11,279 nt of DNA, from the UHGV virus genome UHGV-0098134. The stretch is one strand, 5' to 3'. Under the pieces are notes generated by a model. The model saw only the letters and a program-made list of their open reading frames with translations. It made no database searches and was not told the DNA's origin. This DNA comes from a virus. Positions within the stretch are counted from its first letter, which is position 1. Each line of letters begins with the position of its first letter. Of this stretch, positions 50 to 11,279 are shown one piece after another. Made by a program: the position numbers and the translations under genes.

Positions 50-2410
50 TTGGCCAACGATATTATTACCCAGCTTCAGGCGCGTAATGAGACGTTGACG
101 CAGGCAATAGCCCGTTACGGCTCACTCAACGCCAGAACATTGTTAGCTCTCTCTACTCAGCAAGCGACAGTTATCAAACTAACGCAGCGGCTTGCCGATT
201 CCGCTCTCCGCCTGGAGGAAAATAGCCGCAGCCGCGCTAATCTGATGGAGAAAACCCACACATTTGCCGGGCAATTTAGCAAAGTATTCAATGTTGAAGC
301 CCCCGACTGGAAGTTGCCGTATGAGTTCCAGGACAACATGGTCAATATGGCGACCAAAGGTGGGATGAATGATACAACTCGCGAGACGCTCAGCCTTAAT
401 CTGCGCGACTGGAGCATGGATTTTAACCAGCATCAGACCACCTTACAGAACGCAGCCCAAACGCTGATCGAAGGCAATTTGTCGTCGATACAGGATCTCA
501 ACCGTTATATGCCGGAGATCGCCAAAGCTGCCACCGCCACGCGCGAAAGTGCTGAAACATGGGCGAATGCCGCGCTCGCAACCCATGATCGACTGAATAT
601 TGTGCCAGAAAATTTCCACGTCGCGCAAAACATGATGTACGGCATTAGCAAAAGCGGTGGGCCTGCCGTTGCCGAGCAAACGCTGTGGATAGACAAATTT
701 GCAGGTAAAACCGGCGCTCAGGGTCTGGAAGGTATGGCTGAACTGACTGCCGCCATGCAGATCGCCATGAAAAACGGAGCCAGCGCCAGTGCGGCGGCGG
801 AGAATTTCGACCACTTTCTGCAAACCACCTTTTCGAAAAAGACCGATAACTGGTTCGCCAGCCAGGGCGTCGATCTGCAAGGCTCTCTGCTTGAACATCA
901 GCAAAACGGTATGGGTGTTAGCGAAGCCATGACTCATATCGTACAAATGCAGCTTGAGAAGATGAATCCGGCGATCCTAGACACCTTCAAACGCACTATG
1001 CAGATTGAAGATTTATCTGCTCGCAGCAATGCGCTGCAATCGATGGTGACGCAATTTAATCTGGGCGAAATGTTCGGCGATGCGCAAACGGTGGAATTCC
1101 TGGCACCTATGCTGGCGAATATGGAGGAATATCGCCAGTTAAAAACCTCTGCCATGCAAGCCACCAGCAAGAATCTGATTGATGCCGACTTTTCTGCGCA
1201 AATGGCCTCGCCCATTGAACAGACTAAAGCGTTACAGCTGGCGTTAAATGATTTATGGCTCAGCATTGGCTTGCAATTAATGCCGCTGATTGGCGAGCTG
1301 GCACAAAGCCTTACGCCGGTTATTCGTCAGTTCAGCGCCTGGCTACGTGAGCACCCGACACTGGTGCAAAACATCGCGAAAATCGTCGGGGCGATTTGGC
1401 TGTTTAACGGTGCGCTGAATGTTTTAAAGCTGGGCGCGAACCTCATCACCTCGCCGTTTATTCGTCTGGTCGATATCTTCCTGAAAGTCAAGGCAAGTCT
1501 GGCGCTCACAGGCGGGGCAAGTAAGATGCTATCAGCGGTTAAGTCATTGGGTGGCGGCGCAAAATGGCTAATGCAACTGCTTGGTCGTGGCCTGATTGGC
1601 GCACTGAAACAGGTAGGTCAGACCGTCTTCTGGTTGGGTAGGGTTTTATTGATGAATCCCATTGGTCTGGTCATCACTGCGATTGCGGGCGCTGCTTATC
1701 TGATTTGTCGCAACTGGGAGCCTATCTCAAGGTTCTTTTCGACCATCTGGCAACGTATCACCACGGCCTTTGACGGCGGCATTGCAGGAATTTGTCGGTT
1801 GATTCTCGACTGGTCACCGCTGGAGTTGTTCTATAGCGCCTTTTCCAGTGTGATGAATTGGTTTGGTGTCGAGATGCCTGCAAGTTTTAGCGAGTTCGGC
1901 AGCAATCTTCTGGGCAGTCTGGTTGACGGCATAATGAATGCCTTCCCCGCTCTGAAAGGCATTATTGATCAGGTAAAAAACGTCATCCCAGACTGGCTAA
2001 AAACCACGATGGGTATTAGTACAGAAGGATCGGCTACAGCTATTACAAGCACGACTAATACCGCATCCGTCTCCCCCGCGACCGTTGTTCCAGGCGTTGC
2101 CGGTGCGATTTTAACGCCTCCAGTGGGCAAACAACTCGCGCCATCCAGCAAAACGACAACGCCGCCATCGGCACCAGCGGCAAAACCCGCGTCGGCCTCT
2201 TTACCTGGTAAATCCGTAACCAAAGCGGCGACGCTACCTTCCCGTTCCTCAGGAAAAGTTCAGGTGAATTTTTCGCCACAAATTACCGCGCAGAGTAACG
2301 GACAAAACACCACTAAAGAGATTCAGAACGTGTTGACGATGAGTAAACGCGAACTGGAAAGAATGATTAACGATGTAATGGCGCAGCAGCAGCGCCGGGG
2401 GTATGCCTGA
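50..2410 (+). CDS. phage tail tape measure protein (P2 gpT-like)
   Basis: 786-aa ORF. Helical N-terminal half, central hydrophobic/Gly-rich segments typical of tape measure proteins, then a C-terminal Ser/Thr/Pro/Ala-rich tract. Lies immediately upstream of gpU/gpX/gpD-like genes. Start is TTG at 50, the first canonical start after an in-frame TAA at 11-13, so the true start is uncertain (next in-frame ATG at 245). Stop TGA 2408-2410 overlaps the next ATG. Confidence 0.8.
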   Translation: MANDIITQLQARNETLTQAIARYGSLNARTLLALSTQQATVIKLTQRLADSALRLEENSRSRANLMEKTHTFAGQFSKVFNVEAPDWKLPYEFQDNMVNMATKGGMNDTTRETLSLNLRDWSMDFNQHQTTLQNAAQTLIEGNLSSIQDLNRYMPEIAKAATATRESAETWANAALATHDRLNIVPENFHVAQNMMYGISKSGGPAVAEQTLWIDKFAGKTGAQGLEGMAELTAAMQIAMKNGASASAAAENFDHFLQTTFSKKTDNWFASQGVDLQGSLLEHQQNGMGVSEAMTHIVQMQLEKMNPAILDTFKRTMQIEDLSARSNALQSMVTQFNLGEMFGDAQTVEFLAPMLANMEEYRQLKTSAMQATSKNLIDADFSAQMASPIEQTKALQLALNDLWLSIGLQLMPLIGELAQSLTPVIRQFSAWLREHPTLVQNIAKIVGAIWLFNGALNVLKLGANLITSPFIRLVDIFLKVKASLALTGGASKMLSAVKSLGGGAKWLMQLLGRGLIGALKQVGQTVFWLGRVLLMNPIGLVITAIAGAAYLICRNWEPISRFFSTIWQRITTAFDGGIAGICRLILDWSPLELFYSAFSSVMNWFGVEMPASFSEFGSNLLGSLVDGIMNAFPALKGIIDQVKNVIPDWLKTTMGISTEGSATAITSTTNTASVSPATVVPGVAGAILTPPVGKQLAPSSKTTTPPSAPAAKPASASLPGKSVTKAATLPSRSSGKVQVNFSPQITAQSNGQNTTKEIQNVLTMSKRELERMINDVMAQQQRRGYA

Positions 2411-3363
2411 TGTATGCCGTTTTAGGAGAGATTGAATTTAAAGTTGTCACGTTCTGGGATGGCTTTAAGAGCACAATGGGCGTGGATTACGCCACACATG
2501 CCCGTATTGAAGGCAAACCTGGCGTACAGTTTATTGGCGATAAGCTGGATATGCTGGCGCTGGAATTTTCCCTGCACAGCCAGTTTTGCCAACCCACAAC
2601 AGAGCTGAATCGACTGCGTGAAGCCATGCTCGCCCACAAAGCAATGGCGCTGGTGTTTGGCAACGGAGATTATCGCGGCTGGTTTGTAATTACAGAGTTA
2701 ACCGCCACTCACCAGCACACCGATCCCTGGGGCAATGTCATTGCCCAAAGCGGAACAATGTCGCTCCAGGAGTATACCGGCGATCCGAAAAACCCACTGC
2801 TGCCCCCGGCAATTACCACCCAGGAGCCTAATATCGAGGAAAAGGCGAGCGATTTTCCGAATAAGGAGGAGTCCTGGTTAGATCAGATATTGAACGCCAT
2901 TGAAGAAGGTATGCGCAAAGCCAAAGAGATGCTCGATGAACTGGCGCAATCCATTGAAGATATTAAAAAAACAGTGGCAAAAGTGAAAGCACTGATTAAA
3001 GAGGCCAAAGCGTTAAAAGAAAAGTGTGAAAAGATAATTACGTCGTTGAAAAAGACAATCGACGCCATCGAAACCCTGTTTAAACAGCCGATGGATCTGC
3101 AAACGCTGGCAGGACTCCCAAAAGCGTTGTCGGCGCAGATTAAAGCTTTACTGGGTAACATGCCAGGTATCCGGGACTGCGCCAATGACGCCAGTACGCT
3201 GGTTGACCATGCTCAGGCGCTTTTCGATGACATTACCAGCGACATCGCCGAAACGACGTTTGATAAAGCAGCAACGTTGGTTGATCAGGCACGAACAACG
3301 GTACAACGAACCACTCCAGCAGTGAGTCAGTTTGCTGCCGCAACCATTACGAGGAGCTGGTGA
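2410..3363 (+). CDS. tail protein with gpU-like N-terminal domain and long C-terminal coiled-coil extension
   Basis: 317-aa ORF. The N-terminal ~140 aa (MYAVLGEIEF...GKPGVQFIGDKLDMLALEFSLH...GDYRGWFVITEL) resemble the P2 gpU family as recalled. The C-terminal ~170 aa is Lys/Glu/Ala-rich with a heptad-like pattern (EESWLDQILNAIEEGMRKAKEMLDELAQSIEDIKKTVAKVKALIKEAKALKEK...). ATG 2410 overlaps the upstream stop (TGATG). Confidence 0.65.
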   Translation: MYAVLGEIEFKVVTFWDGFKSTMGVDYATHARIEGKPGVQFIGDKLDMLALEFSLHSQFCQPTTELNRLREAMLAHKAMALVFGNGDYRGWFVITELTATHQHTDPWGNVIAQSGTMSLQEYTGDPKNPLLPPAITTQEPNIEEKASDFPNKEESWLDQILNAIEEGMRKAKEMLDELAQSIEDIKKTVAKVKALIKEAKALKEKCEKIITSLKKTIDAIETLFKQPMDLQTLAGLPKALSAQIKALLGNMPGIRDCANDASTLVDHAQALFDDITSDIAETTFDKAATLVDQARTTVQRTTPAVSQFAAATITRSW

Positions 3364-3572
3364 TGCGATACCTTGAACATATCACCACCGACGGCGAACG
3401 CTGGGATAATCTGGCATGGCATTACTATGGCGATGCGCTGGCTTATGAACGCATTATCGCCGCCAATCCACATGTCGCCATTTACCCGGTACTACCTTCC
3501 GGTATTCAGCTCATCATTCCGGTCATTTCCGTTAATAAAACCTTATCGGAGATCCCACCATGGCTGAGATGA
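3363..3572 (+). CDS. phage tail protein X (gpX-like, LysM-type domain)
   Basis: About 70-aa ORF with a LysM-like pattern (GERWDNLAWHYYGD...ANP...LPSGIQLIIP) like P2 gpX. GAGGAG at 3351-3356 sits 6 nt before ATG 3363, which overlaps the upstream TGA (TGATG). The ORF track starts it 3 nt earlier at GTG 3360. Confidence 0.8.
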   Translation: MRYLEHITTDGERWDNLAWHYYGDALAYERIIAANPHVAIYPVLPSGIQLIIPVISVNKTLSEIPPWLR

Positions 3573-4600
3573 GCGTAACTGGTGGCGTCTTTGCCACGCT
3601 CGCGCCCATTTTTACCCTCTGGTATGGGCATAAAGATATCACTTATGACATCACACCCTATGTCATCAGCATCCGTTACCACGACAGCATCAAAAACGAG
3701 TCGGATACCATCGCAATTACACTGGATGACACAGATGGACGCTGGATAAAAGAGTGGTATCCCGGCAAAGGCGATACGCTGGCGCTGCATATAGGTTATC
3801 AGGGGGAAAAGCTGCTCGATTGTGGCCAGTATATTATTGATAAAATTGATATTTCAGCGCCACCTTCCACGGTAAATATTGATGGCATCGCCACTTCCGT
3901 CAATCAGGCGCTGCGCACCCGTAACAGCCAGGGCTTTGAAGAAACGACGCTTTCGGCGATCGCCAGCCGTATTGCCCAAACGCACGGTCTGAAACTGGTG
4001 GGCAAAATCGAGTCGCTCACCATCGACCGGGTAACGCAGTATGGTGAAACCGATGTCGGATTTCTCAAACGTATGGCCAGTGAATATGGTTATGCCGTAA
4101 AAGTGACGACAAAAGAGCTGATTTTTTCACATTTACCCACGCTGCGCTGCCTGGCACCGGTAAAAAAGATCGATCGCAAAGACGTTTCGCATTTCACCTT
4201 CAAAGATACCATTAACCGGATCTACAAGAACGCCACCGTACAGCATCAAAATAGTAAGAAAAAAGAACTGGTTATCTACACTCACGACAGCCAGCAAAAA
4301 CCATCTGTCCGTGGAGTCGGCACTAGTGCCGACACGCTAAAACTGAACAGTCGGGCGACGGACGTTGGCGCAGCACAGGCAAAGGCTAACGCTGCACTCG
4401 ACAGCCACAACGAATATCAGCAAACCGGAACGCTCACAATGATGGGCTGCCCGGAACTGACGGCGGGTAATAAAATCGAGCTAACCGATTTTGGTGTGCT
4501 TTCCGGTCAGTGGCTGATTGATAAATCTACTCACAGTTTTGTGCGCAGCGGCTATACCACCGAAATCGACGTTTCGCGCGGGCCTGCGACCAGCCAGTAA
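3560..4600 (+). CDS. phage late control gene D protein / baseplate hub (gpD-like)
   Basis: 346-aa ORF of gpD/Mu gp44-like size and character, placed after gpX as in P2-type tails. Overlaps gpX by 13 nt. An alternative ATG at 3569 forms an ATGA overlap with the gpX stop. Confidence 0.8.
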   Translation: MAEMSVTGGVFATLAPIFTLWYGHKDITYDITPYVISIRYHDSIKNESDTIAITLDDTDGRWIKEWYPGKGDTLALHIGYQGEKLLDCGQYIIDKIDISAPPSTVNIDGIATSVNQALRTRNSQGFEETTLSAIASRIAQTHGLKLVGKIESLTIDRVTQYGETDVGFLKRMASEYGYAVKVTTKELIFSHLPTLRCLAPVKKIDRKDVSHFTFKDTINRIYKNATVQHQNSKKKELVIYTHDSQQKPSVRGVGTSADTLKLNSRATDVGAAQAKANAALDSHNEYQQTGTLTMMGCPELTAGNKIELTDFGVLSGQWLIDKSTHSFVRSGYTTEIDVSRGPATSQ

Positions 4601-4609
4601 GGAGGCGAT

Positions 4610-5311
4610 ATGAAAGGAGTAACCCGACAAACGGGGATTATCAGCGATATTGACGAAACCAGTATTCGGGTACGGGTCACTCTACCAGAGTGTGACAATC
4701 TGAAGAGCAACTGGCTTGCGGTACTTCAACGCAATTCCCAGGACAATAAAGACTACTGGCTACCGGATATGGGCGAGCAAGTGGAAGTTCTGCTGGACGA
4801 TAACGGTGAAGATGGCGTGGTGCTGGGTGCCGTTTATTCTACGGTTGACACCGCGCCTGTAGCCTCGCGCGACAAACGTTACGTCCAGTTTTCTGATGGC
4901 GCAGCGTTTGAATATGACCGCAGCACGCACCAGCTGACGATCAACGGCGGTATCGAGAAAATCGTGATTGAGGTTATCAACGGTACCTGCCTGACATCGC
5001 CCAACGTTGAGATTAAAGCCCAACAGGTCACCGTGACTTCCGATACCGTCGATGTTAAAGCGACCGATGTCAGCATCGACGCCACTAAGGTCGAGGTTAA
5101 AGCAGCAGCAGTGACGGTAGATGCGCCCATGAGCACCTTTACTGGCAACGTCACGGTAATGAAAAAACTCACCTGGCTTGGCGGGATGGCAAGAAGTGGA
5201 GGCATCGGTAACGCAGCCACGATAACCGGCAATGTCAACGTGATCGGCAACGTTCAGGCCAGCGGCGCATTGCAGGACAGCGGTGGCAACTCCAACCACC
5301 ATTCACACTGA
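4610..5311 (+). CDS. baseplate assembly protein V / central spike (gpV-like)
   Basis: 233-aa ORF. An N-terminal OB-fold-like region is followed by a run of alternating beta-strand residues (VEIKAQQVTVTSDTVDVKATDVSIDATKVEVKAAAVTVDA) typical of a spike beta-helix, and a His-rich C-terminus (NSNHHSH). Strong RBS AAGGAGG 7 nt upstream of the ATG. Confidence 0.8.
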   Translation: MKGVTRQTGIISDIDETSIRVRVTLPECDNLKSNWLAVLQRNSQDNKDYWLPDMGEQVEVLLDDNGEDGVVLGAVYSTVDTAPVASRDKRYVQFSDGAAFEYDRSTHQLTINGGIEKIVIEVINGTCLTSPNVEIKAQQVTVTSDTVDVKATDVSIDATKVEVKAAAVTVDAPMSTFTGNVTVMKKLTWLGGMARSGGIGNAATITGNVNVIGNVQASGALQDSGGNSNHHSH

Positions 5312-5316
5312 CTTTT

Positions 5317-5346
5317 AACCCGCCTGATGGCGGGTTTTCTCTTTTT
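5317..5346 (+). terminator. putative intrinsic terminator between gpV and gpW
   Basis: Perfect 8-bp inverted repeat AACCCGCC (5317-5324) / GGCGGGTT (5329-5336) with a 4-nt loop TGAT, followed by the T-rich tract TTCTCTTTTT. It begins 6 nt after the gpV stop. Confidence 0.55.
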
Positions 5347-5409
5347 AATCAATCAGTTTTCTAAATCGCTTTAATATCTCCACAGCCCGTTCAGGGCGAA
5401 AATACCCTC

Positions 5410-5769
5410 ATGAACACAAAAACACGCCCCTCAACGCTGCACTGGCAACCGGCCTTGCAGCGGCCTGAAGAATACGTCTGCGGGCTGGATGATATTCACC
5501 AGGCGATACACATCATTCTGCGCACACCGCGCGGCAGTGATCCTCACAGACCGCTGTTTGGCAGCAACTTGTGGCACTACATCGATTACCCCATCGAGCG
5601 GGCAATCCCGCATGTGGTACGGGAGTCGGTGGAAGCCATCCGCCAGTGGGAACCGCGCTGTCGGTTGCTGAAGGTGACACCAGTAATCGACGGTGAACAT
5701 CTGACGTTACGTGTGCAATGGCGCGCCGCTGACGGCGTTATCAACTCAACGGAGGTGTTATGGCGATAG
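5410..5769 (+). CDS. baseplate wedge protein W (GPW/gp25 family)
   Basis: 119-aa ORF of gp25/GPW size with a conserved-looking core (HQAIHIILRTPRGSDPHRPLFGSNLWHYID...AIRQWEPRCRL). The stop overlaps the downstream ATG, and GGAGG at 5751-5755 serves the next gene. Confidence 0.8.
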   Translation: MNTKTRPSTLHWQPALQRPEEYVCGLDDIHQAIHIILRTPRGSDPHRPLFGSNLWHYIDYPIERAIPHVVRESVEAIRQWEPRCRLLKVTPVIDGEHLTLRVQWRAADGVINSTEVLWR

Positions 5770-6868
5770 CCGAACCCAATTTTATTGACCGCGATCCTGC
5801 GCAAATTACCAGTGAGATGATTGCGCAATACGAAGATGCCAGTGGTAAAAAACTCTATCCGGCACAGGCTGAGCGGTTGCTCATCGACCTGTTTGCCTAT
5901 CGTGAAAACCTTGTACGCATCGCCATTCAGGAAGCGGCGAAACAAAACCTGGTCGCGTATTCCCGCGCGCCAATGCTGGATTATTTAGGGGAGTTGGTGG
6001 GAGTTCACCGTTTGCCTGCGCAGCCTGCAAAAACGACGTTGCAGTTTTCAGTGCGTATACCAGCAATATCCTGATTCCCCAGGGGACGCGGGCCAGTGCC
6101 TCTGATAGCGTGATGTTCGCCACCGATGAAGATGTTCTGCTTCCGGCCAGGAGTTTGCATATCGCCGTTCCTGCCACCAGCCTCGCAGCAGGTGAACAGG
6201 GCAACGGCTGGCAGCCTGCACAAATTAGCACACTGGTCGACAGGATTGGTCATTATGACATCAACGTAACCAACCTGACTGCGTCAACGGGCGGCTGCGG
6301 TGAAGAGAGCGATGACGCATTGCGCCAGCGTATCCAACTGGCACCAGAAAGCTTTAGTAATGCGGGCAGCTATGGCGCATACCGCTTTCATACGCTTTCT
6401 GTTAGCCAGTCGATTATTGACGTTGCAGTACTGGGGCCGGACGAGGGATTGCCAGAAGGCTGCGTGGAGATCTACCCGCTAACCCTGAACGGACTGCCAG
6501 GAATAGAACTGCTCGCGCAAATCGAACAGGAGGTTAGCAAGGAGAAAAAACGTCCGCTGACCGACAAAGTGAGTGCGAAATGCGCTCTTCGAGTGCCGTA
6601 TGAGATCCGTGCTCAGCTAACGCTGTTTACCACCGCCGATCAGGAGACAACGCTGGCTGCGGCGCGTAAAGCGATTAGCCTCTGGACGCAACAGCGGCAG
6701 AAACATCTGGGGCAGGACATTGTGCCAAACCAGATAATCAAAGTGTTACAGGTCGATGGCGTCTATGACGTTGCGCTGAATATGCCTACAAAACGTATTT
6801 TGCAGGCGCATGAATGGGCGGAATGCACTGCAATAGACGTCACGATTGCCGGAGTCAGCGATGGATAA
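5760..6868 (+). pseudogene. baseplate protein J (gpJ-like), interrupted by a frameshift
   Basis: The N-terminal 104 codons (5760-6074) end at TGA 6072-6074. The rest of the gpJ-like sequence continues in another frame, which is open from well upstream of 6000 through 6868 (ORF track starts it at GTG 6110). Frame 0 reads ...AKTTLQFSVRIPAIS*, and the other frame reads ...YTSNILIPQGTRASASDSVMFATDEDVLL... and later LRQRIQLAPESFSNAGSYGAYRFH, matching gpJ as recalled. A 1-nt deletion or 2-nt insertion near 6050-6068 is implied. Confidence 0.7.
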
Positions 6869-7577
6869 ATTGCTGCCACCGCCGCCGCTTGCCAGCGATG
6901 AGCGTTTTTCGATTCTGGCAAACATCGCCGCCGAGCGTTTTGCCCAACTCGATCTTACGGCGTTGATGGTTTATCTGGTCGACCTGGTTGATGCTTCGGC
7001 ATTACCAGCCCTTGCAGAACAATTTCACGTTCAGGGGCTGGAAGGTTGGTTATTTACCACCGATGAGCGGGAGAAACGCGAGTTAATTAAACAAGCCATT
7101 GAACTGCATAAATATAAAGGAACAATTTGGGCGGTACGGCGGGTGCTGGAAATACTTTCCTTACCCGGAACTATTTCAGAATGGTTTGAATATGGGGGAA
7201 GGGCTTATTTTTTTAAGGTAAATATTACACTAGAGGAAAAAGGATTAAATGAAGATGAATTCAATGCACTTATCACATTAATTCATGAATATAAAAATGT
7301 TCGTTCAAAGCTGGAAAGCATTGTTATTTGGCTTATTAATCGAAGCCCAATACCAGTTATTGGCAGCGCCATGCAAGGAGGGGAAGTCATTACAGTATTG
7401 CCTCCTGTTGCAGAAAGCCTCAGCCAGTCATCAGGAATATTTTTAGCGACGGGTTATTGTGTGGAGGAATATATTCAACTACTACCTTATCAACCCGATC
7501 GACTTACACAATCCCAACCGATGAAGGTCGGCACAGGATACTGGAGCACCGAAATTATGTCTGTATATCCGGAGTAA
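6861..7577 (+). CDS. baseplate/tail protein I (gpI-like)
   Basis: ORF with a gpI-like motif ([18 protein letters not shown], compare the P2 gpI core as recalled). Preferred start is ATG 6861 with GGAG at 6851-6854. The ORF track begins at TTG 6846. Overlaps the end of gpJ. Confidence 0.75.
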
Positions 7578-7579
7578 TA

Positions 7580-9160
7580 ATGGCAAGTGAATTTTTTACA
7601 ATATTAACTGCTGCTGGCAAAGCCAAAATTGCCTCAGCACTGGCCGAGCAAAAACAGATCCGTCTGCAAACTATGGTAGTTGGCGACGGTAATGGTAAAT
7701 ATATCGAACCGACAGAAAGTCAGACCAAAGTAGTCCATGAGGTCTGGCGTGGTCAGCTCAATACATTAAAAATTGCGCCAGATAATCCGGCCTGGGTTAT
7801 CGCAGAAGCGATTATTCCCGAACAAGTCGGAGGCTGGTATGTACGCGAAGTTGGGTTACTGGATACCGACGGCACGCTGGTCGCTATTGGTAAATTTCCG
7901 GAAACCTATAAGCCACGATTACCTGCGGGGGCCAGTAAGCAAATCGTTATACGCGCGGTCATGGAAGTCACCAATACAGACGCGGTGACGCTTTTGATCG
8001 ACCCTTCAGTCGTTGTGGCAACCAGGGAATATGTCGATGATGCGTTGAAAACACATCAGCAATCACGAAATCATCCTGATGCGACGCTGACACAAAAAGG
8101 TTTTACGCAGCTCAGTAATGCAACTAATAGCGATGATGAGACTAAAGCAGCCACGCCAAAAGCGGTAAAAACGGCATATGACCTGGCAAATAGCAAAGCC
8201 GCAACCAGTCATACTCATGCCTGGAATCAGATTACTGGTATCCCTGATGGTACACTGACGCAGAAAGGAGTCGTTAAACTTAACAACACAACAAATAGCA
8301 CCAGTACAACGGAAGCTGCAACGCCAAGTGCTGTTAAAGCAGCGATGGACAAGGCTATTGCTGCGGCACCGTCCAGCCATACCCATGCCTGGGGGCAAAT
8401 AACAGGTATCCCCGACGGTACGCTGACACAAAAAGGGGTCGTGAAACTTAATAATGCGACCAACAGCACCAGTACGACGGAAGCTGCAACGCCGAACGCG
8501 GTTAAGGCAGCGATGGATAAGGCTATTGCTGCGGAAAGCTGTCCTGTAGGGATGCCTATACCCTGGCCATCTGATTCTGTACCTTCAGGCTACGCTCTGA
8601 TGACTGGTCAGACATTTAATAAAACCTCCTATCCCAAACTGGCAATTGCATATCCATCTGGCGTTATTCCTGATATGCGCGGATGGATAATTAAAGGAAA
8701 ACCATCCAGTGGGCGCGCTATATTATCTACTGAACTGGATGGAGTTAAATCACATAACCATACGGGCAGTATTTCTAGTACCAATTTAGGGACAATAACA
8801 TCTACCTCTACGGACTTAGGAACAAAAACTACAGCTTCATTTAATCATGGAAGTAGAAATACAAGCACATCTGGAGAACATACACACCGAATACCAACTG
8901 ATGGTGCAGAAGGTAAAGATGGACCGTCTTTATGGAACAGCCCCAATTCAGATGAGAACTACAGAGAACCTACTGAGTCTGCTGGTAGTCATTATCATAG
9001 TATTACGATTGGCGCCCATGCACATACAATCGCACTGGGAAGTCATACACATAATATTGTGTTAGGTACACATAATCACTCAATTATCATCAATAACACT
9101 GGCAATACAGAAAATACTGTTAAAAACATTGCATTCAATTATATTGTGAGGCTTGCATGA
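7580..9160 (+). CDS. tail fibre protein (P2 gpH/Mu S-like N-terminus, lambda Stf-like C-terminal tip)
   Basis: The N-terminus [18 protein letters not shown]...VGDGNG...EVWRG is the conserved baseplate-attachment domain of P2/Mu-type fibres. The middle carries phage tail-fibre repeats (TLTQKG..L.NATNS...AATP.AVK). The C-terminus (PIPWPSD.VPSGY.LM.GQ.F.K..YPKLA.AYPSG..PDMRGW.IKGKP...HxH...[18 protein letters not shown]) closely matches the lambda Stf C-terminus as recalled. Start chosen at ATG 7580 (GGAG at 7571-7574), while the ORF track extends in frame to 7457 inside gpI. Confidence 0.9.
8210..8545 (+). repeat. in-frame tandem duplication (2 x 168 bp) of the tail-fibre repeat unit
   Basis: Two consecutive 56-codon units, both beginning CAT AC[T/C] CAT GCC TGG (8210 and 8378). 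They encode nearly identical peptides (HTHAW[N/G][20 protein letters not shown][T/A][12 protein letters not shown][S/N][12 protein letters not shown]..) but differ at many synonymous sites. A more diverged third copy lies upstream at about 8078-8209. Confidence 0.75.
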
Positions 9161-9864
9161 ATACTTTTACTTTTTCCGATAACGCACAAATTTTATCTGT
9201 TTTTAATTTTTCACCAGACACACAAGAATTTATTGGTGAGTCCAATGTATATATAGCACCAAACACTGGACTACCGAATTACTGCACATTAACACCACCA
9301 CCACAAAAAATTGCAGGTTTTACTTCTATATGGTCAATTAATAAATGGGAACTTATTGAAGATCATCGAGGCCAAACTGTTTATAACAAAGTTGATGGCA
9401 GCCAGATTATTATTAATAAATTGGGTCAATTGCCTGAAACTGTCACCATCATTTCCCCTACCAGTACTTTTGAGCGTTGGGATGGCGAAAAATGGCAGCC
9501 ATCAATTGATGATGCTAAACAGGCGAAATGTGCCGAAATCAAAACATTGCGCGACTCCATCACTACCGACTACATCATCATCAACGACAATTACTTCCAC
9601 AGTGATACAAGCAGCCGCATCCAACAACTCTCACTCACAAAAATGGGAGCGGAGAAAAAAATTCCGCCAGGTTTAATGTGGAAAACTAAAAATAATGGTC
9701 TGACTGAGTTAACCAACGAAATCGCTGCCCAGTTTGAATCCGTCACAATGGATCACGATATACGCTTGTTTGCCAACGCCCAACGCCATATCGCGGCGGT
9801 GGAAGCTCTGGACGATATTCAGTCGGTACTCGACTACGATTATTCAACAGGCTGGCAACCATGA
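9157..9864 (+). CDS. tail fibre assembly chaperone (Tfa; lambda Tfa-like N-terminal domain)
   Basis: 235-aa ORF. The N-terminal region ([17 protein letters not shown]...[11 protein letters not shown]) matches the conserved Tfa N-terminal domain as recalled from lambda Tfa (FIGEGDAYIPPHTGLP...LVEDHRGKTVY). ATG 9157 overlaps the fibre stop (ATGA). Confidence 0.85.
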
Positions 9865-10316
9865 GTAAAACTACAGTCTGGCTCGCTTGCTATAAAGGGC
9901 GAACAGAGCACCGGGTTATTGCGAGACTGGCTGACTGGCTTACACGCAAAATCACTCGCGGCAGTTATTCCCACTGTGAATTAGCCGTAGCACATGGAGA
10001 AAAGAGTTACCTTTGTTACTCCGCCTCTCTGCGCGATCGAGGCGTTCGTGGAAAGATAATGCCTTTACCGCCAGACAAGTGGGATATGCTGCCGCTCCAG
10101 GTCAGCCTTCAGGATGTAGAAGCGTTTTTCCGTAAACATGATGGCAAAAAATACGACTGGCGTGGAGCCTTAGGAATTATCACCGGCAATAAAGAACAGC
10201 GCGATCGCCTGTTTTGTAGCGAATTTTGTGCCGAATTTCTGCAATTAAAAGAAAGTTGGCGCTATTCCCCAAACCACTTGTACGCTTTAGTTAACAGTTG
10301 GCAATATCAACCATAA
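9861..10316 (+). CDS. hypothetical protein; possible permuted papain-like (LRAT/NlpC-P60-type) Cys/His enzyme
   Basis: 151-aa ORF translationally coupled to Tfa (ATGA overlap at 9861-9864), with host-like GC. The motifs GSYSHCELAVAHG (His) and, about 80 residues later, LFCSEFCAEF (Cys) resemble the YxHWAxY ... NCEHF arrangement of LRAT-like thiol acyltransferases/hydrolases. The family assignment is tentative. Confidence 0.55.
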   Translation: MSKTTVWLACYKGRTEHRVIARLADWLTRKITRGSYSHCELAVAHGEKSYLCYSASLRDRGVRGKIMPLPPDKWDMLPLQVSLQDVEAFFRKHDGKKYDWRGALGIITGNKEQRDRLFCSEFCAEFLQLKESWRYSPNHLYALVNSWQYQP

Positions 10317-10321
10317 ACTAC

Positions 10322-10346
10322 GCCGGGCTTCAAGCCCGGCTTTAAT
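10322..10346 (+). terminator. putative intrinsic terminator after the tail-fibre operon
   Basis: GC-rich perfect inverted repeat GCCGGGC (10322-10328) / GCCCGGC (10334-10340) with loop TTCAA, followed by TTTAAT. The U-tract is short, so it is marginal. Starts 6 nt after the TAA of the 151-aa ORF. Confidence 0.45.
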
Positions 10347-10460
10347 CAGGCTGTATATTCCATCACAAACAAAGCACATGATTATAAATATTCACAGTAA
10401 TTATATTTCCATATTAACCATCCACTGAGTGAATATAGAAGAATTTAAATACAATAACTA

Positions 10461-10488
10461 TTGCATTGTAAATTACATCAAATATAGT
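10461..10488 (+). promoter_or_regulatory. candidate sigma70-type promoter for the downstream low-GC gene
   Basis: TTGCAT (10461-10466), a 16-bp spacer, then TATAGT (10483-10488), about 40 nt upstream of ATG 10530 with AGGGA as a possible RBS. The region is very AT-rich, so chance matches are likely. Confidence 0.3.
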
Positions 10489-10529
10489 TCACTACTTATA
10501 TATTTTGCTAATCGCTACAGGGAAATTAC

Positions 10530-11258
10530 ATGTTTATTGTCTCAGTTCTCAGACAAAGTAAGGATTTCACTATTAAACATGCACAATGGCTTCACCAGCA
10601 GCTGGATGGGTATAATTCCATTTGCATGACGGATGCTTCAGAAATCAAAGGGGTTCAAACCACTCCATTACTGTATAATTGGCCAGGATGGTGGGCAAAA
10701 TTAGAGCTATTTAATCCCGAACATCCTGTTATCGGGAATGAAGATATACTTTATATTGATATTGATACTGTAATCGTCGGTGATATTACACAGTTTACTA
10801 AAATGAAAAAAGTAACATTACTGAACGACTTCTCGCAGCATGGTTCCAATGCTGCTCCTGCGACTGGAATAATGTTCATTCCTGCGGACGCCAAAAAACT
10901 TGTCTGGGAAGAGTTTATGAGATCGCCTGAAACTGAAATAAATTCAACCAGAAAGCCGCCATATCATGGGGATCAGGGATTTATCGGCAGAGTATGTCAT
11001 GACGCTGAAAGATGGCAGGATATTTTTCCAGGACAAATTATCAGTTACAAAGCGAATATAGCGACGCCTAAAATGATAGGCTTTAATCCTGACTTACACG
11101 ATGGTAAAGCAAACGGAGAATTGCCATCGGATGCAAAAATTGTATGTTTTCACGGTTCACCTCGTCCCTGGAACACAGCTCTCCACTGGGTTCCAGGTTT
11201 CAGCATAAAAAACACACTCTGCAGCAAATTTAAACAGCTCAAATATTCTCTTCGGTAA
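10530..11258 (+). CDS. putative nucleotide-sugar glycosyltransferase (GT-A fold, GT8-like motifs); low-GC cargo/moron gene
   Basis: 242-aa ORF with clearly lower GC than the tail genes. Motifs line up with GT8 enzymes such as LgtC and glycogenin as recalled: WAKLELF...EDILYIDIDTVIVGDI (hydrophobic strand plus DxD), GDQGFIG (compare QDQDILN), and C-terminal KIVCFHGSPRPW (compare HxxGxxKPW). Separated from the tail operon by a terminator and an AT-rich promoter-like region. Confidence 0.5.
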   Translation: MFIVSVLRQSKDFTIKHAQWLHQQLDGYNSICMTDASEIKGVQTTPLLYNWPGWWAKLELFNPEHPVIGNEDILYIDIDTVIVGDITQFTKMKKVTLLNDFSQHGSNAAPATGIMFIPADAKKLVWEEFMRSPETEINSTRKPPYHGDQGFIGRVCHDAERWQDIFPGQIISYKANIATPKMIGFNPDLHDGKANGELPSDAKIVCFHGSPRPWNTALHWVPGFSIKNTLCSKFKQLKYSLR

Positions 11259-11279
11259 AAAACTTTTTTATTGGAAGGG

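Follow-up and report, generated by a model that had tools for sequence, protein, structure and literature searches.

A PmgQ-family, GT8-like glycosyltransferase gene carried as a moron behind the tail-fibre genes of an Escherichia fergusonii prophage

A 938-bp cassette at the end of a prophage tail module

The DNA analyzed here (the window, 11,279 nt in full) is 99.9% identical to Escherichia fergusonii chromosomes (represented below by locus L011), and PHROG and Pfam annotation identified it as the tail module of a myovirus prophage. The genes and other features are, by position:

50-2410, tape measure
2410-3363, gpU-like protein
3360-3572, gpX
3560-4600, gpD-like protein
4610-5311, baseplate V
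5410-5769, baseplate W
5760-6868, baseplate J, split
6846-7577, baseplate I (gpI)
about 7580-9160, tail fibre
9157-9864, fibre-assembly protein
9861-10316, 151-aa ORF (hyp151)
10322-10340, left GC-rich hairpin, GCCGGGC-TTCAA-GCCCGGC (GCCGGGCTTCAAGCCCGGC), the left cassette boundary
10341-11278, + strand, moron cassette of 938 bp, AT-rich leader plus glycosyltransferase gene, delimited by the S10 comparison
10341-10529, + strand, AT-rich leader, GC about 0.31, recognized by composition
10461-10488, + strand, candidate sigma-70 promoter TTGCAT-16 nt-TATAGT, conserved in related cassettes
10520-10523, + strand, Shine-Dalgarno-like GGGA 6 nt 5' of the ATG, seen in the sequence and conserved in related cassettes
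10530-11258, + strand, glycosyltransferase ORF, PmgQ-family and GT8-like, 242 aa, ATG start

The last of these ORFs had been flagged in an earlier note, made from the letters of the window, as a low-GC, GT8-like glycosyltransferase gene, and the ORF, its length and the quoted YIDID, GDQGF and FHGSPRPW motifs are all present as described there. The exact protein is UniProt B7LKX4_ESCF3 (E. fergusonii B7LKX4), labelled 'uncharacterized'. The AT-rich leader ahead of the ORF is likewise present (GC 0.315 over 213 nt), and an Rfam search of the leader and gene found nothing above noise. The contrast in composition with the tail genes held only in part. At a GC of 0.405 (GC3 0.354), the ORF is clearly lower than the tape-measure, tube and baseplate genes (0.49-0.575), but not markedly lower than the genes for gpI (0.443), the tail fibre (0.456; GC3 0.368) and the fibre-assembly protein (0.408; GC3 0.386), which fall at 0.41-0.46. 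Since these three genes are as low as the glycosyltransferase ORF, the drop in GC begins near 7000, and low GC is not peculiar to the ORF but common to the adjoining fibre genes.

The hairpin at the left boundary starts 6 nt past the stop codon of the preceding 151-aa gene and has an 8-bp stem with 7 G-C pairs (MFE -16.7 kcal/mol, z -3.64). It had been read as a terminator ahead of the ORF; the structure is real and stable, but the T-tract that follows it on the + strand (TTTAATCAGG) is weak, and a consensus scan flagged the hairpin as terminator-like on the - strand only. Related cassettes of the family each finish with a hairpin of their own, and that of phage Chuche is a canonical terminator; the hairpins of the cassette studied here are stable but have weak T-tails.

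The cassette boundaries were placed by comparison with a collinear prophage of E. coli S10 (locus L004) that is without the 938-bp cassette. The two prophages are 95% identical across gpD, the baseplate genes and the beginning of gpI (3886-7364) and 89% identical over 9560-10340; homology ends at 10340 and picks up again at position 10750 of L011, which corresponds to window position 11279. The lone hairpin copy of the S10 prophage corresponds to each flank of the insert in E. fergusonii, and so the cassette is bracketed by a 20-bp direct repeat of the hairpin, the right copy of which begins at or just past the end of the window. The suggestion that the ORF was acquired independently of the tail genes is confirmed by this arrangement, with the cassette missing from the related S10 prophage and a hairpin copy on each side. 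Within the leader, TTGCAT-N16-TATAGT is kept in the cassettes of E. fergusonii, E. albertii and Salmonella (S.Kent), and the remainder of the leader has diverged. This candidate promoter scores 8/12, under the threshold of the sigma-70 consensus scan, which reported no promoter in the leader. Absence from S10, two flanking hairpins and a conserved promoter-like element together make the cassette a textbook moron.

Megablast of the cassette against phage records gave no match, and in E. coli complete genomes only the upstream 541 bp were in common with the query. Downstream in E. fergusonii lie genes for a convergent RlaP-family nucleotidyltransferase and a slipin, and then the host genes yjbD and rluF, so that the cassette site is the right-end cargo slot of the prophage. 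The E. albertii (93% aa identity) and Salmonella (77%) versions occupy the same slot, and their fibre and assembly genes and other cargo differ. This location bears on one alternative, namely that the enzyme glycosylates a nucleic acid or small molecule in phage-host conflict (Mom-like DNA modification, anti-defence or defence). The right-end position is equivalent to that of Mom in Mu-type genomes, and the slot is a variable one, with the RlaP nucleotidyltransferase and slipin here and GT4 'conflict' genes in relatives. However, PADLOC had no model matching the glycosyltransferase, hyp151, the RlaP nucleotidyltransferase or the slipin, and no base-hypermodification genes lie alongside. Mom-like DNA modification in particular was considered for its right-end position and rejected as unlikely.

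Fold, motifs and conservation of the encoded protein

The AF2 model of the protein (pLDDT 95.3, pTM 0.92) is a single Rossmann-like alpha/beta/alpha domain with a central mixed beta-sheet, in line with the predicted GT-A fold, and GT-A/GT8 enzymes lead the Foldseek matches, the top ones being LgtC, UGGT, Gat1, GlyE, glycogenin and WbbM, at an identity to the solved GT8s of only 13-16%. At the sequence level a family profile was needed, since single-sequence phmmer against the PDB gave just a match to LicM2, which was spurious. The family profile (A1) matched only GT8 chains in the PDB (Gat1, 6.3e-8; glycogenin, about 1e-6; GlyE, 2.6e-4), with marginal similarity to LgtC (E 0.67). In these alignments, the DxD falls on the glycogenin DAD (and on the DxD of Gat1), GDQG on GGDQG, and FHGsPRPW on HFlGqtKPW, so the motif set proposed in the earlier note as GT-A/GT8-like is upheld. 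The corresponding catalytic motif set of GT8 enzymes has three members: DxD, a D-Q motif (the region of LgtC Q189 and glycogenin D162) and a C-terminal His metal ligand in H-x-G-x-x-KPW.

The same note had anticipated a match to Pfam Glyco_transf_8 or another GT-A family, and on this point the searches diverged: the PDB matches of the profile were exclusively GT8, but Pfam and NCBIfam scans of the query returned no match even at E <=10, which by these scans places the protein outside Pfam GT8. Weak, sub-threshold PF01501 matches occur in 11 of 63 family members (best E 0.0046), and an hhalign comparison between the family profile and a single canonical core GT8 was uninformative, with a probability of 8% and an alignment confined to the DxD strand. 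Taking the predicted structure together with the profile matches, we regard the GT-A fold and the relationship to GT8 as established. By analogy with the GT8 relatives, the chemistry would be retaining.

In the 242-aa protein, YIDID lies at 75-79, GDQGF at 147-151 and FHGSPRPW at 207-214, and the GT-A core features are WPGWWAK-E (51-59), D77-x-D79, G147-D148-Q149 and H208-G209-x-P211. Across 63 sequences the invariant or near-invariant columns are D35, W51-W55, K57, E59, D77, D79, D148, H208, G209 and P211; D77, in the DxD that follows a hydrophobic strand, is invariant, and D79, D148, H208, G209 and P211 are each at least 90% conserved. All catalytic motifs are intact in the window protein. 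No transmembrane segment was found in the protein, and a basic C-terminal helix (226-241; 5-6 Lys/Arg and no acidic residues) is present in the query clade only and not in other clades. The lack of a transmembrane segment and the basic helix weakly suggest a peripheral inner-membrane enzyme; in an amphipathicity check the helix lay outside the top hydrophobic-moment windows.

The ORF is real, intact and under purifying selection, as comparison with E. albertii gives a dN/dS of 0.11 and comparison with Salmonella one of 0.05. These values also address whether the gene might be an inactive or decaying remnant with no present function. The baseplate gene J of this prophage has a 7-bp, frameshifting deletion, so the prophage element may be decaying. 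For the glycosyltransferase gene itself, the low dN/dS and intact motifs argue against decay, as do the identical protein indexed in 261 blocks of an assembly collection and on 139 contigs, and a cluster of 77%-identical Salmonella orthologues with more than 1,100 member sequences, labelled only 'hypothetical'. We therefore regard a remnant as highly improbable.

The PmgQ family and its gene contexts

The family to which the protein belongs is large, uncharacterised and without a Pfam model. An exhaustive profile search recovered 6,494 representatives (at 50% identity) at E <=1e-3 and 2,179 at E <=1e-30, and, among the records consulted, almost all members carrying a source name are called 'hypothetical'. 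Among the phage members are P1 PmgQ and P7 HdmD (36% identity), together with proteins of phiNP, Chlobot, Chuche, IME392 and Xanthomonas/Stenotrophomonas jumbo phages; a literature search for PmgQ and HdmD yielded gene-list mentions only. For the survey of gene contexts, 80 genomic loci were fetched, flanking ORFs were clustered and recurrent clusters were annotated. In a neighbour-joining tree (300 bootstraps), the query clade takes in a Pectobacterium gene from an LPS-core (waa) locus (97% bootstrap), and the genes adjacent to waaL make up another (98%). Neither clade contains P1 PmgQ, and the node that would join the query clade to the main clade of WaaL-adjacent genes is not robust, at 22% bootstrap.

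The chromosomal members show where relatives of the gene reside in host genomes. In 10 species-level loci, a homologue immediately precedes a gene for a Wzy_C O-antigen ligase and has the same orientation, an arrangement found in Erwinia, Rosenbergiella, Klebsiella spp., Raoultella, Morganella and 'Martelella alba'. Those of Klebsiella, Raoultella and Morganella are inside complete waa loci, with KdtA, GT9 heptosyltransferases, GT4, GT2 and HldD, and next to kbl. In Pectobacterium, the order is GT9, GT4, WaaP, PEtN transferase, canonical GT8, a 305-aa protein (unk305), the GT8-like homologue and GT25, such that the homologue (53% identity) sits between a canonical GT8 plus GT42-like gene on one side and GT25 on the other. 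The window gene itself is on a prophage, in a clade that includes this waa-locus gene.

The acceptor could instead be another envelope glycan, such as an Und-PP-linked O-unit or a precursor of enterobacterial common antigen or capsule, which would involve the same cytoplasmic GT-A chemistry. In Erwinia, Rosenbergiella and 'Martelella', the Wzy_C-domain gene adjoining the homologue is outside complete waa clusters; two query-clade members are paired with a hexapeptide sugar acyltransferase, and such acyltransferases, like the FkbM methyltransferases with which family members are also paired, are typical of O-antigen and capsule loci; and one family member is fused to PF05050. Yet the best-resolved chromosomal contexts are waa loci (KdtA, GT9, WaaP, HldD) rather than rfb, and, for a single added transferase to work on polymerised repeat units, a compatible Wzy or Wzx would usually be required as well. 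We consider such an acceptor unlikely.

On phages, the gene is often part of a larger module. In P1 it is the last gene of the operon pmgN-pmgO-pmgP-ppp-pmgQ, which has a C1-operated sigma-70 promoter; since the operon is C1-repressed, pmgQ is expressed during lytic growth rather than in the lysogen. P1 pmgQ scored as non-essential in a CRISPRi screen (PMC10695390). One or two paralogues of about 200 aa (PmgO-like and PmgP-like) precede the gene in P1, phiNP, IME392, XacN1, a P2-like prophage of Ewingella and many HK97-like prophages (Halomonas, Rhizobiales and relatives), with FkbM or class-I methyltransferases often beside these PmgO/PmgP-PmgQ-type modules. A profile of the partners that includes PmgO, PmgP and the waa-locus protein unk305 matches GT42 LOS sialyltransferases (CstII, 3.4e-7). 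Acinetobacter KdoT was ruled out as a model for an MptE-like partner, KdoT being a GT-B enzyme.

The window gene is without the GT42-like partner found in waa loci and P1-type modules, and the query clade occurs instead as solitary morons or islets. Its position beside receptor-binding genes, remarked on previously, is recurrent: across six or more distinct prophage backgrounds, the query-clade gene adjoins the gene for tail-fibre assembly and is often convergent with it. Clade members are also found as lone chromosomal islets, amid housekeeping genes and without phage genes, in Shimwellia, in Salmonella near flhD and in Vitreoscilla.

These contexts are informative for two of the alternatives. 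Glycosylation of a protein, whether of the virion (the tail fibre or another structural component) or of the host, as by glycogenin, Gat1 or GlyE, has a basis in the nature of Gat1 and glycogenin: these score best among the solved relatives and are cytoplasmic enzymes that act on proteins, which counts against an LPS acceptor. However, the gene is convergent with the fibre operon in at least four prophages and is thus not co-transcribed with it; the neighbouring fibre and assembly genes have been swapped with the glycosyltransferase retained; clade members reside in phage-free chromosomal islets and waa loci; and the GT42-like partners point to glycans of the LOS/LPS type. We assign protein glycosylation a low probability. 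As for nucleic-acid or small-molecule glycosylation, the P1 homologue is under a C1-controlled lytic promoter, together with a phosphatase, and the family is present in jumbo phages, both of which would suit a part in phage-host conflict. The top structural matches, in contrast, are all sugar-to-sugar or sugar-to-protein GT8 enzymes, and DNA modification would poorly explain the homologues in waa loci and in solitary chromosomal positions, which leaves this alternative very unlikely.

Candidate function and comparison with known systems

On balance we favor, with moderate confidence, a metal-dependent, retaining GT-A transferase that decorates the LPS core, leading to lysogenic conversion or receptor masking. 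The core is proposed as the acceptor because of the waa-locus homologues, the GT42-like LOS-type partners, the pairing with sugar acyltransferases and the placement beside receptor-binding genes, and alteration of the lysogen's LPS appears most likely since the closest chromosomal relatives are in LPS-core gene clusters. In Haemophilus and Campylobacter, lipooligosaccharide outer cores are acted on by GT8 (LgtC) and GT42 (Lic3A, CstII) enzymes in concert. The protein would be a soluble or peripherally membrane-associated, Mn2+-dependent enzyme, carried as an apparently self-contained moron and presumably expressed in the lysogen. It may bind a UDP-hexose through D77-x-D79 and H208 with Mn2+ and, on the cytoplasmic side of the inner membrane, pass the sugar to the core oligosaccharide of LPS with retention of configuration (an alpha linkage). 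An outer-core residue would thereby be added or capped, altering the LPS of the lysogen, both as phage receptor and as the site of O-antigen ligation, and the outcome could be lysogenic conversion, receptor masking or superinfection exclusion. Several points temper this proposal: sequence similarity to bona fide LPS-core GT8 enzymes is marginal; of the tree's links between the query clade and waa-locus genes, only that to the Pectobacterium gene is robust; the acceptor of the window gene could differ, because the GT42-like partner is missing; a role in the lysogen sits uneasily with the lytic-phase expression of the homologous P1 operon and the dispensability of pmgQ; the promoter-like element has a low score; and PADLOC has no model for the protein.

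A broader possibility, which we put forward tentatively and consider somewhat doubtful, is that PmgQ-family proteins supply the GT8-like part of a glycan-remodelling module that is widespread among phages, has never been characterised and rewrites the LPS core. The module would unite two GT42-like proteins, PmgO and PmgP, with PmgQ as the GT8-like one and would often include FkbM or class-I methyltransferases; it would span P1, P2-like and HK97-like prophages and Xanthomonas jumbo phages, its enzyme pair recurring in enterobacterial LPS-core loci. P1 might then rewrite the LPS core, its own receptor, during lytic growth under C1 control, and the window gene could be a stripped-down, single-gene derivative expressed constitutively for lysogenic conversion.

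LPS-altering genes on prophages change serotype, phage susceptibility and host interaction, and bear on phage therapy and typing of Escherichia and Salmonella. The waa-locus and GT42-partner contexts provide a concrete hypothesis that is cheap to examine, a shift in the mass of the LPS core. If true, the proposed function would give an annotation to thousands of proteins and to a conserved P1 operon, and the module would provide a function for P1 pmgO, pmgP and pmgQ and for a set of unannotated waa-locus genes. The assignment to an enzyme class is not new, since PHROGs and RefSeq already label relatives 'glycosyltransferase'; new here are the sharp boundaries of the moron, the waa-locus relatives, the conserved PmgO/PmgP(GT42-like)-PmgQ module and the finding of how large the unannotated family is.

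The closest profile and structure matches of the protein are in CAZy GT8, which includes glycogenin, the Skp1 alpha-galactosyltransferase Gat1, Neisseria LgtC, S. pneumoniae GlyE and core transferases of the enterobacterial WaaI/WaaJ/WaaO type. It differs from these in falling below the PF01501 threshold and having no NCBIfam match, at 13-16% identity, and in the PmgQ family's own invariant WPGWWAK-E motif; unlike WaaJ-type enzymes, it is without the GT8 C-terminal domain and has the short basic helix instead. P1 PmgQ and P7 HdmD (phrog_1962, 'glycosyltransferase', originally 'putative morphogenetic function') are of the same family, PmgQ with 36% identity by tblastn and 41% over a trimmed alignment (phrog_1962 E 9e-99), and both pmgQ and the window gene are accessory genes of temperate phages. 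However, pmgQ is at the end of a C1-repressed operon with two GT42-like partners, whereas the window gene is solitary with its own promoter-like element, and PmgQ lacks the basic C-terminal helix of the window protein, which belongs to a different, well-supported clade. The enterobacterial waa-locus genes are also of the same family (41-53% identity) and have the same motifs, and the Pectobacterium gene has a basic C-terminal extension in common with the window protein. These relatives are chromosomal and co-transcribed with waaL or located by a GT42-like gene, in contrast with the prophage-borne window gene, and, as they too are labelled 'hypothetical protein', they offer gene context alone.

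Finally, the cassette resembles the cargo of serotype-converting prophages, such as O-antigen glucosylation of the gtrABC type (Shigella SfV/SfX, Salmonella P22) and O-acetyltransferase morons. Like these, it is an accessory cassette at the prophage end by the receptor-binding genes, low in GC (as are the adjoining fibre genes) and putatively transcribed separately, and a change in LPS, and hence in phage adsorption or antigenicity, would be expected of both; LPS-altering prophage cargo is in this respect a sensible rather than a surprising finding. Gtr systems modify completed O-antigen by means of a GT2 enzyme, a flippase and a GT-C enzyme in the periplasm, whereas the window gene is predicted to encode a single cytoplasmic GT-A enzyme, whose action would need to precede export and would most plausibly be directed at the core.

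Boundaries of the cassette and the tail genes before it

The 938-bp cassette that carries the GT8-like gene is bounded by two copies of a short GC-rich hairpin, the second of which lies just past the window end in L011, the E. fergusonii chromosome with 99.9% identity to the window.

Features of the tail module and cassette boundary
Window 5760-6074 and 6110-6868: baseplate J gene, in two ORFs
Window 9861-10316: 151-aa ORF, after the DUF4376-containing fibre-assembly gene
Window 10322-10340 and L011 10750-10771: GC-rich hairpin, ~20 bp, two copies in direct repeat around the cassette

Because the hairpin is present once in the GT-less E. coli S10 prophage (L004) and twice around the cassette, its arrangement suggests that the cassette may have been inserted or exchanged through recombination at this terminator hairpin. 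The 151-aa ORF preceding it had no match in Pfam, NCBIfam or PADLOC. The E. coli relative keeps this ORF, conserved at 89% nucleotide identity, and the Salmonella form of the prophage lacks it.

Further upstream, window 7364-9560 runs from the end of gpI through the tail fibre and across most of the fibre-assembly gene. The E. coli prophage, collinear elsewhere, shows no similarity to this stretch by megablast, and the length of the stretch differs between the copies in E. fergusonii, E. albertii and Salmonella, with fibres of 381-582 aa. This region looks like an exchanged host-range cassette. Its GC content is also low (0.41-0.46), and the low-GC tract therefore starts at ~7000, not at the glycosyltransferase.

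The baseplate J gene, encoding 371 aa elsewhere, is split in the window by the loss of 7 bp at 6048 compared to E. fergusonii genomes that are otherwise 99.9% identical (L011, TTTTCGGTCGTCAGTG; window, TTTTCAGTG). The prophage copy in the window is probably tail-defective, or else the deletion is an assembly error.

Cargo at the yjbD-rluF junction

Glycosyltransferase cargo seems to have a hotspot at the junction where the prophage meets host yjbD-rluF. Between the cassette and yjbD lies a convergent gene pair that the E. coli relative has conserved and that is degraded in E. albertii. A PADLOC search returned no match for this pair, which may represent further cargo or a defence pair.

Genes downstream of the cassette
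L011 10750-12683 (just past the window end) and L004 6532-8456: RlaP-family nucleotidyltransferase (263 aa) and Band_7/slipin protein (375 aa)
L013 and L014 14659-15801, L006 and L009 11355-12497: GT4 glycosyltransferase (Pfam 'GT4-conflict', PF20706)

In some E. fergusonii genomes, duplicated yjbD (DUF3811) fragments enclose the GT4 glycosyltransferase, and in E. albertii the GT8-like gene is followed directly by split GT4 fragments.

Partners of the glycosyltransferase in waa loci and phages

Partner genes at comparison loci
L019 7058-7987, L029 9897-10811 (-), L083 9913-10809 (-) and L065 8755-9735: unannotated protein, ~305 aa
L095 3144-5702: P1 pmgO-pmgP-ppp-pmgQ
L003 5463-7300, L097 1950-4624, L098 1936-4558 and L103 4342-6663: further loci with PmgO- or PmgP-like partners and a PmgQ-like glycosyltransferase

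The ~305-aa protein is GT42-related, with a weak match to PF01973 (MptE-like). It is found repeatedly beside the GT8-like gene, both in waa loci of enterobacteria and in an Opitutales MAG, which suggests that the two form a functional unit of LPS core synthesis. In Klebsiella and Raoultella, the gene directly upstream encodes a protein of 438 aa that is unannotated and has no Pfam match.

P1 PmgO and PmgP are distantly related paralogues that share homology with GT42 LOS sialyltransferases. Both occur alongside a PmgQ-like glycosyltransferase in P1, IME392, the jumbo phage XacN1, many HK97-like prophages and a P2-like prophage of Ewingella; in phiNP the only partner of the glycosyltransferase is a PmgP-like protein. 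The XacN1 glycosyltransferase makes up the C-terminal half of a larger protein of 438 aa. PmgO, PmgP and the PmgQ-like glycosyltransferase constitute a conserved, uncharacterised phage module of three enzymes.
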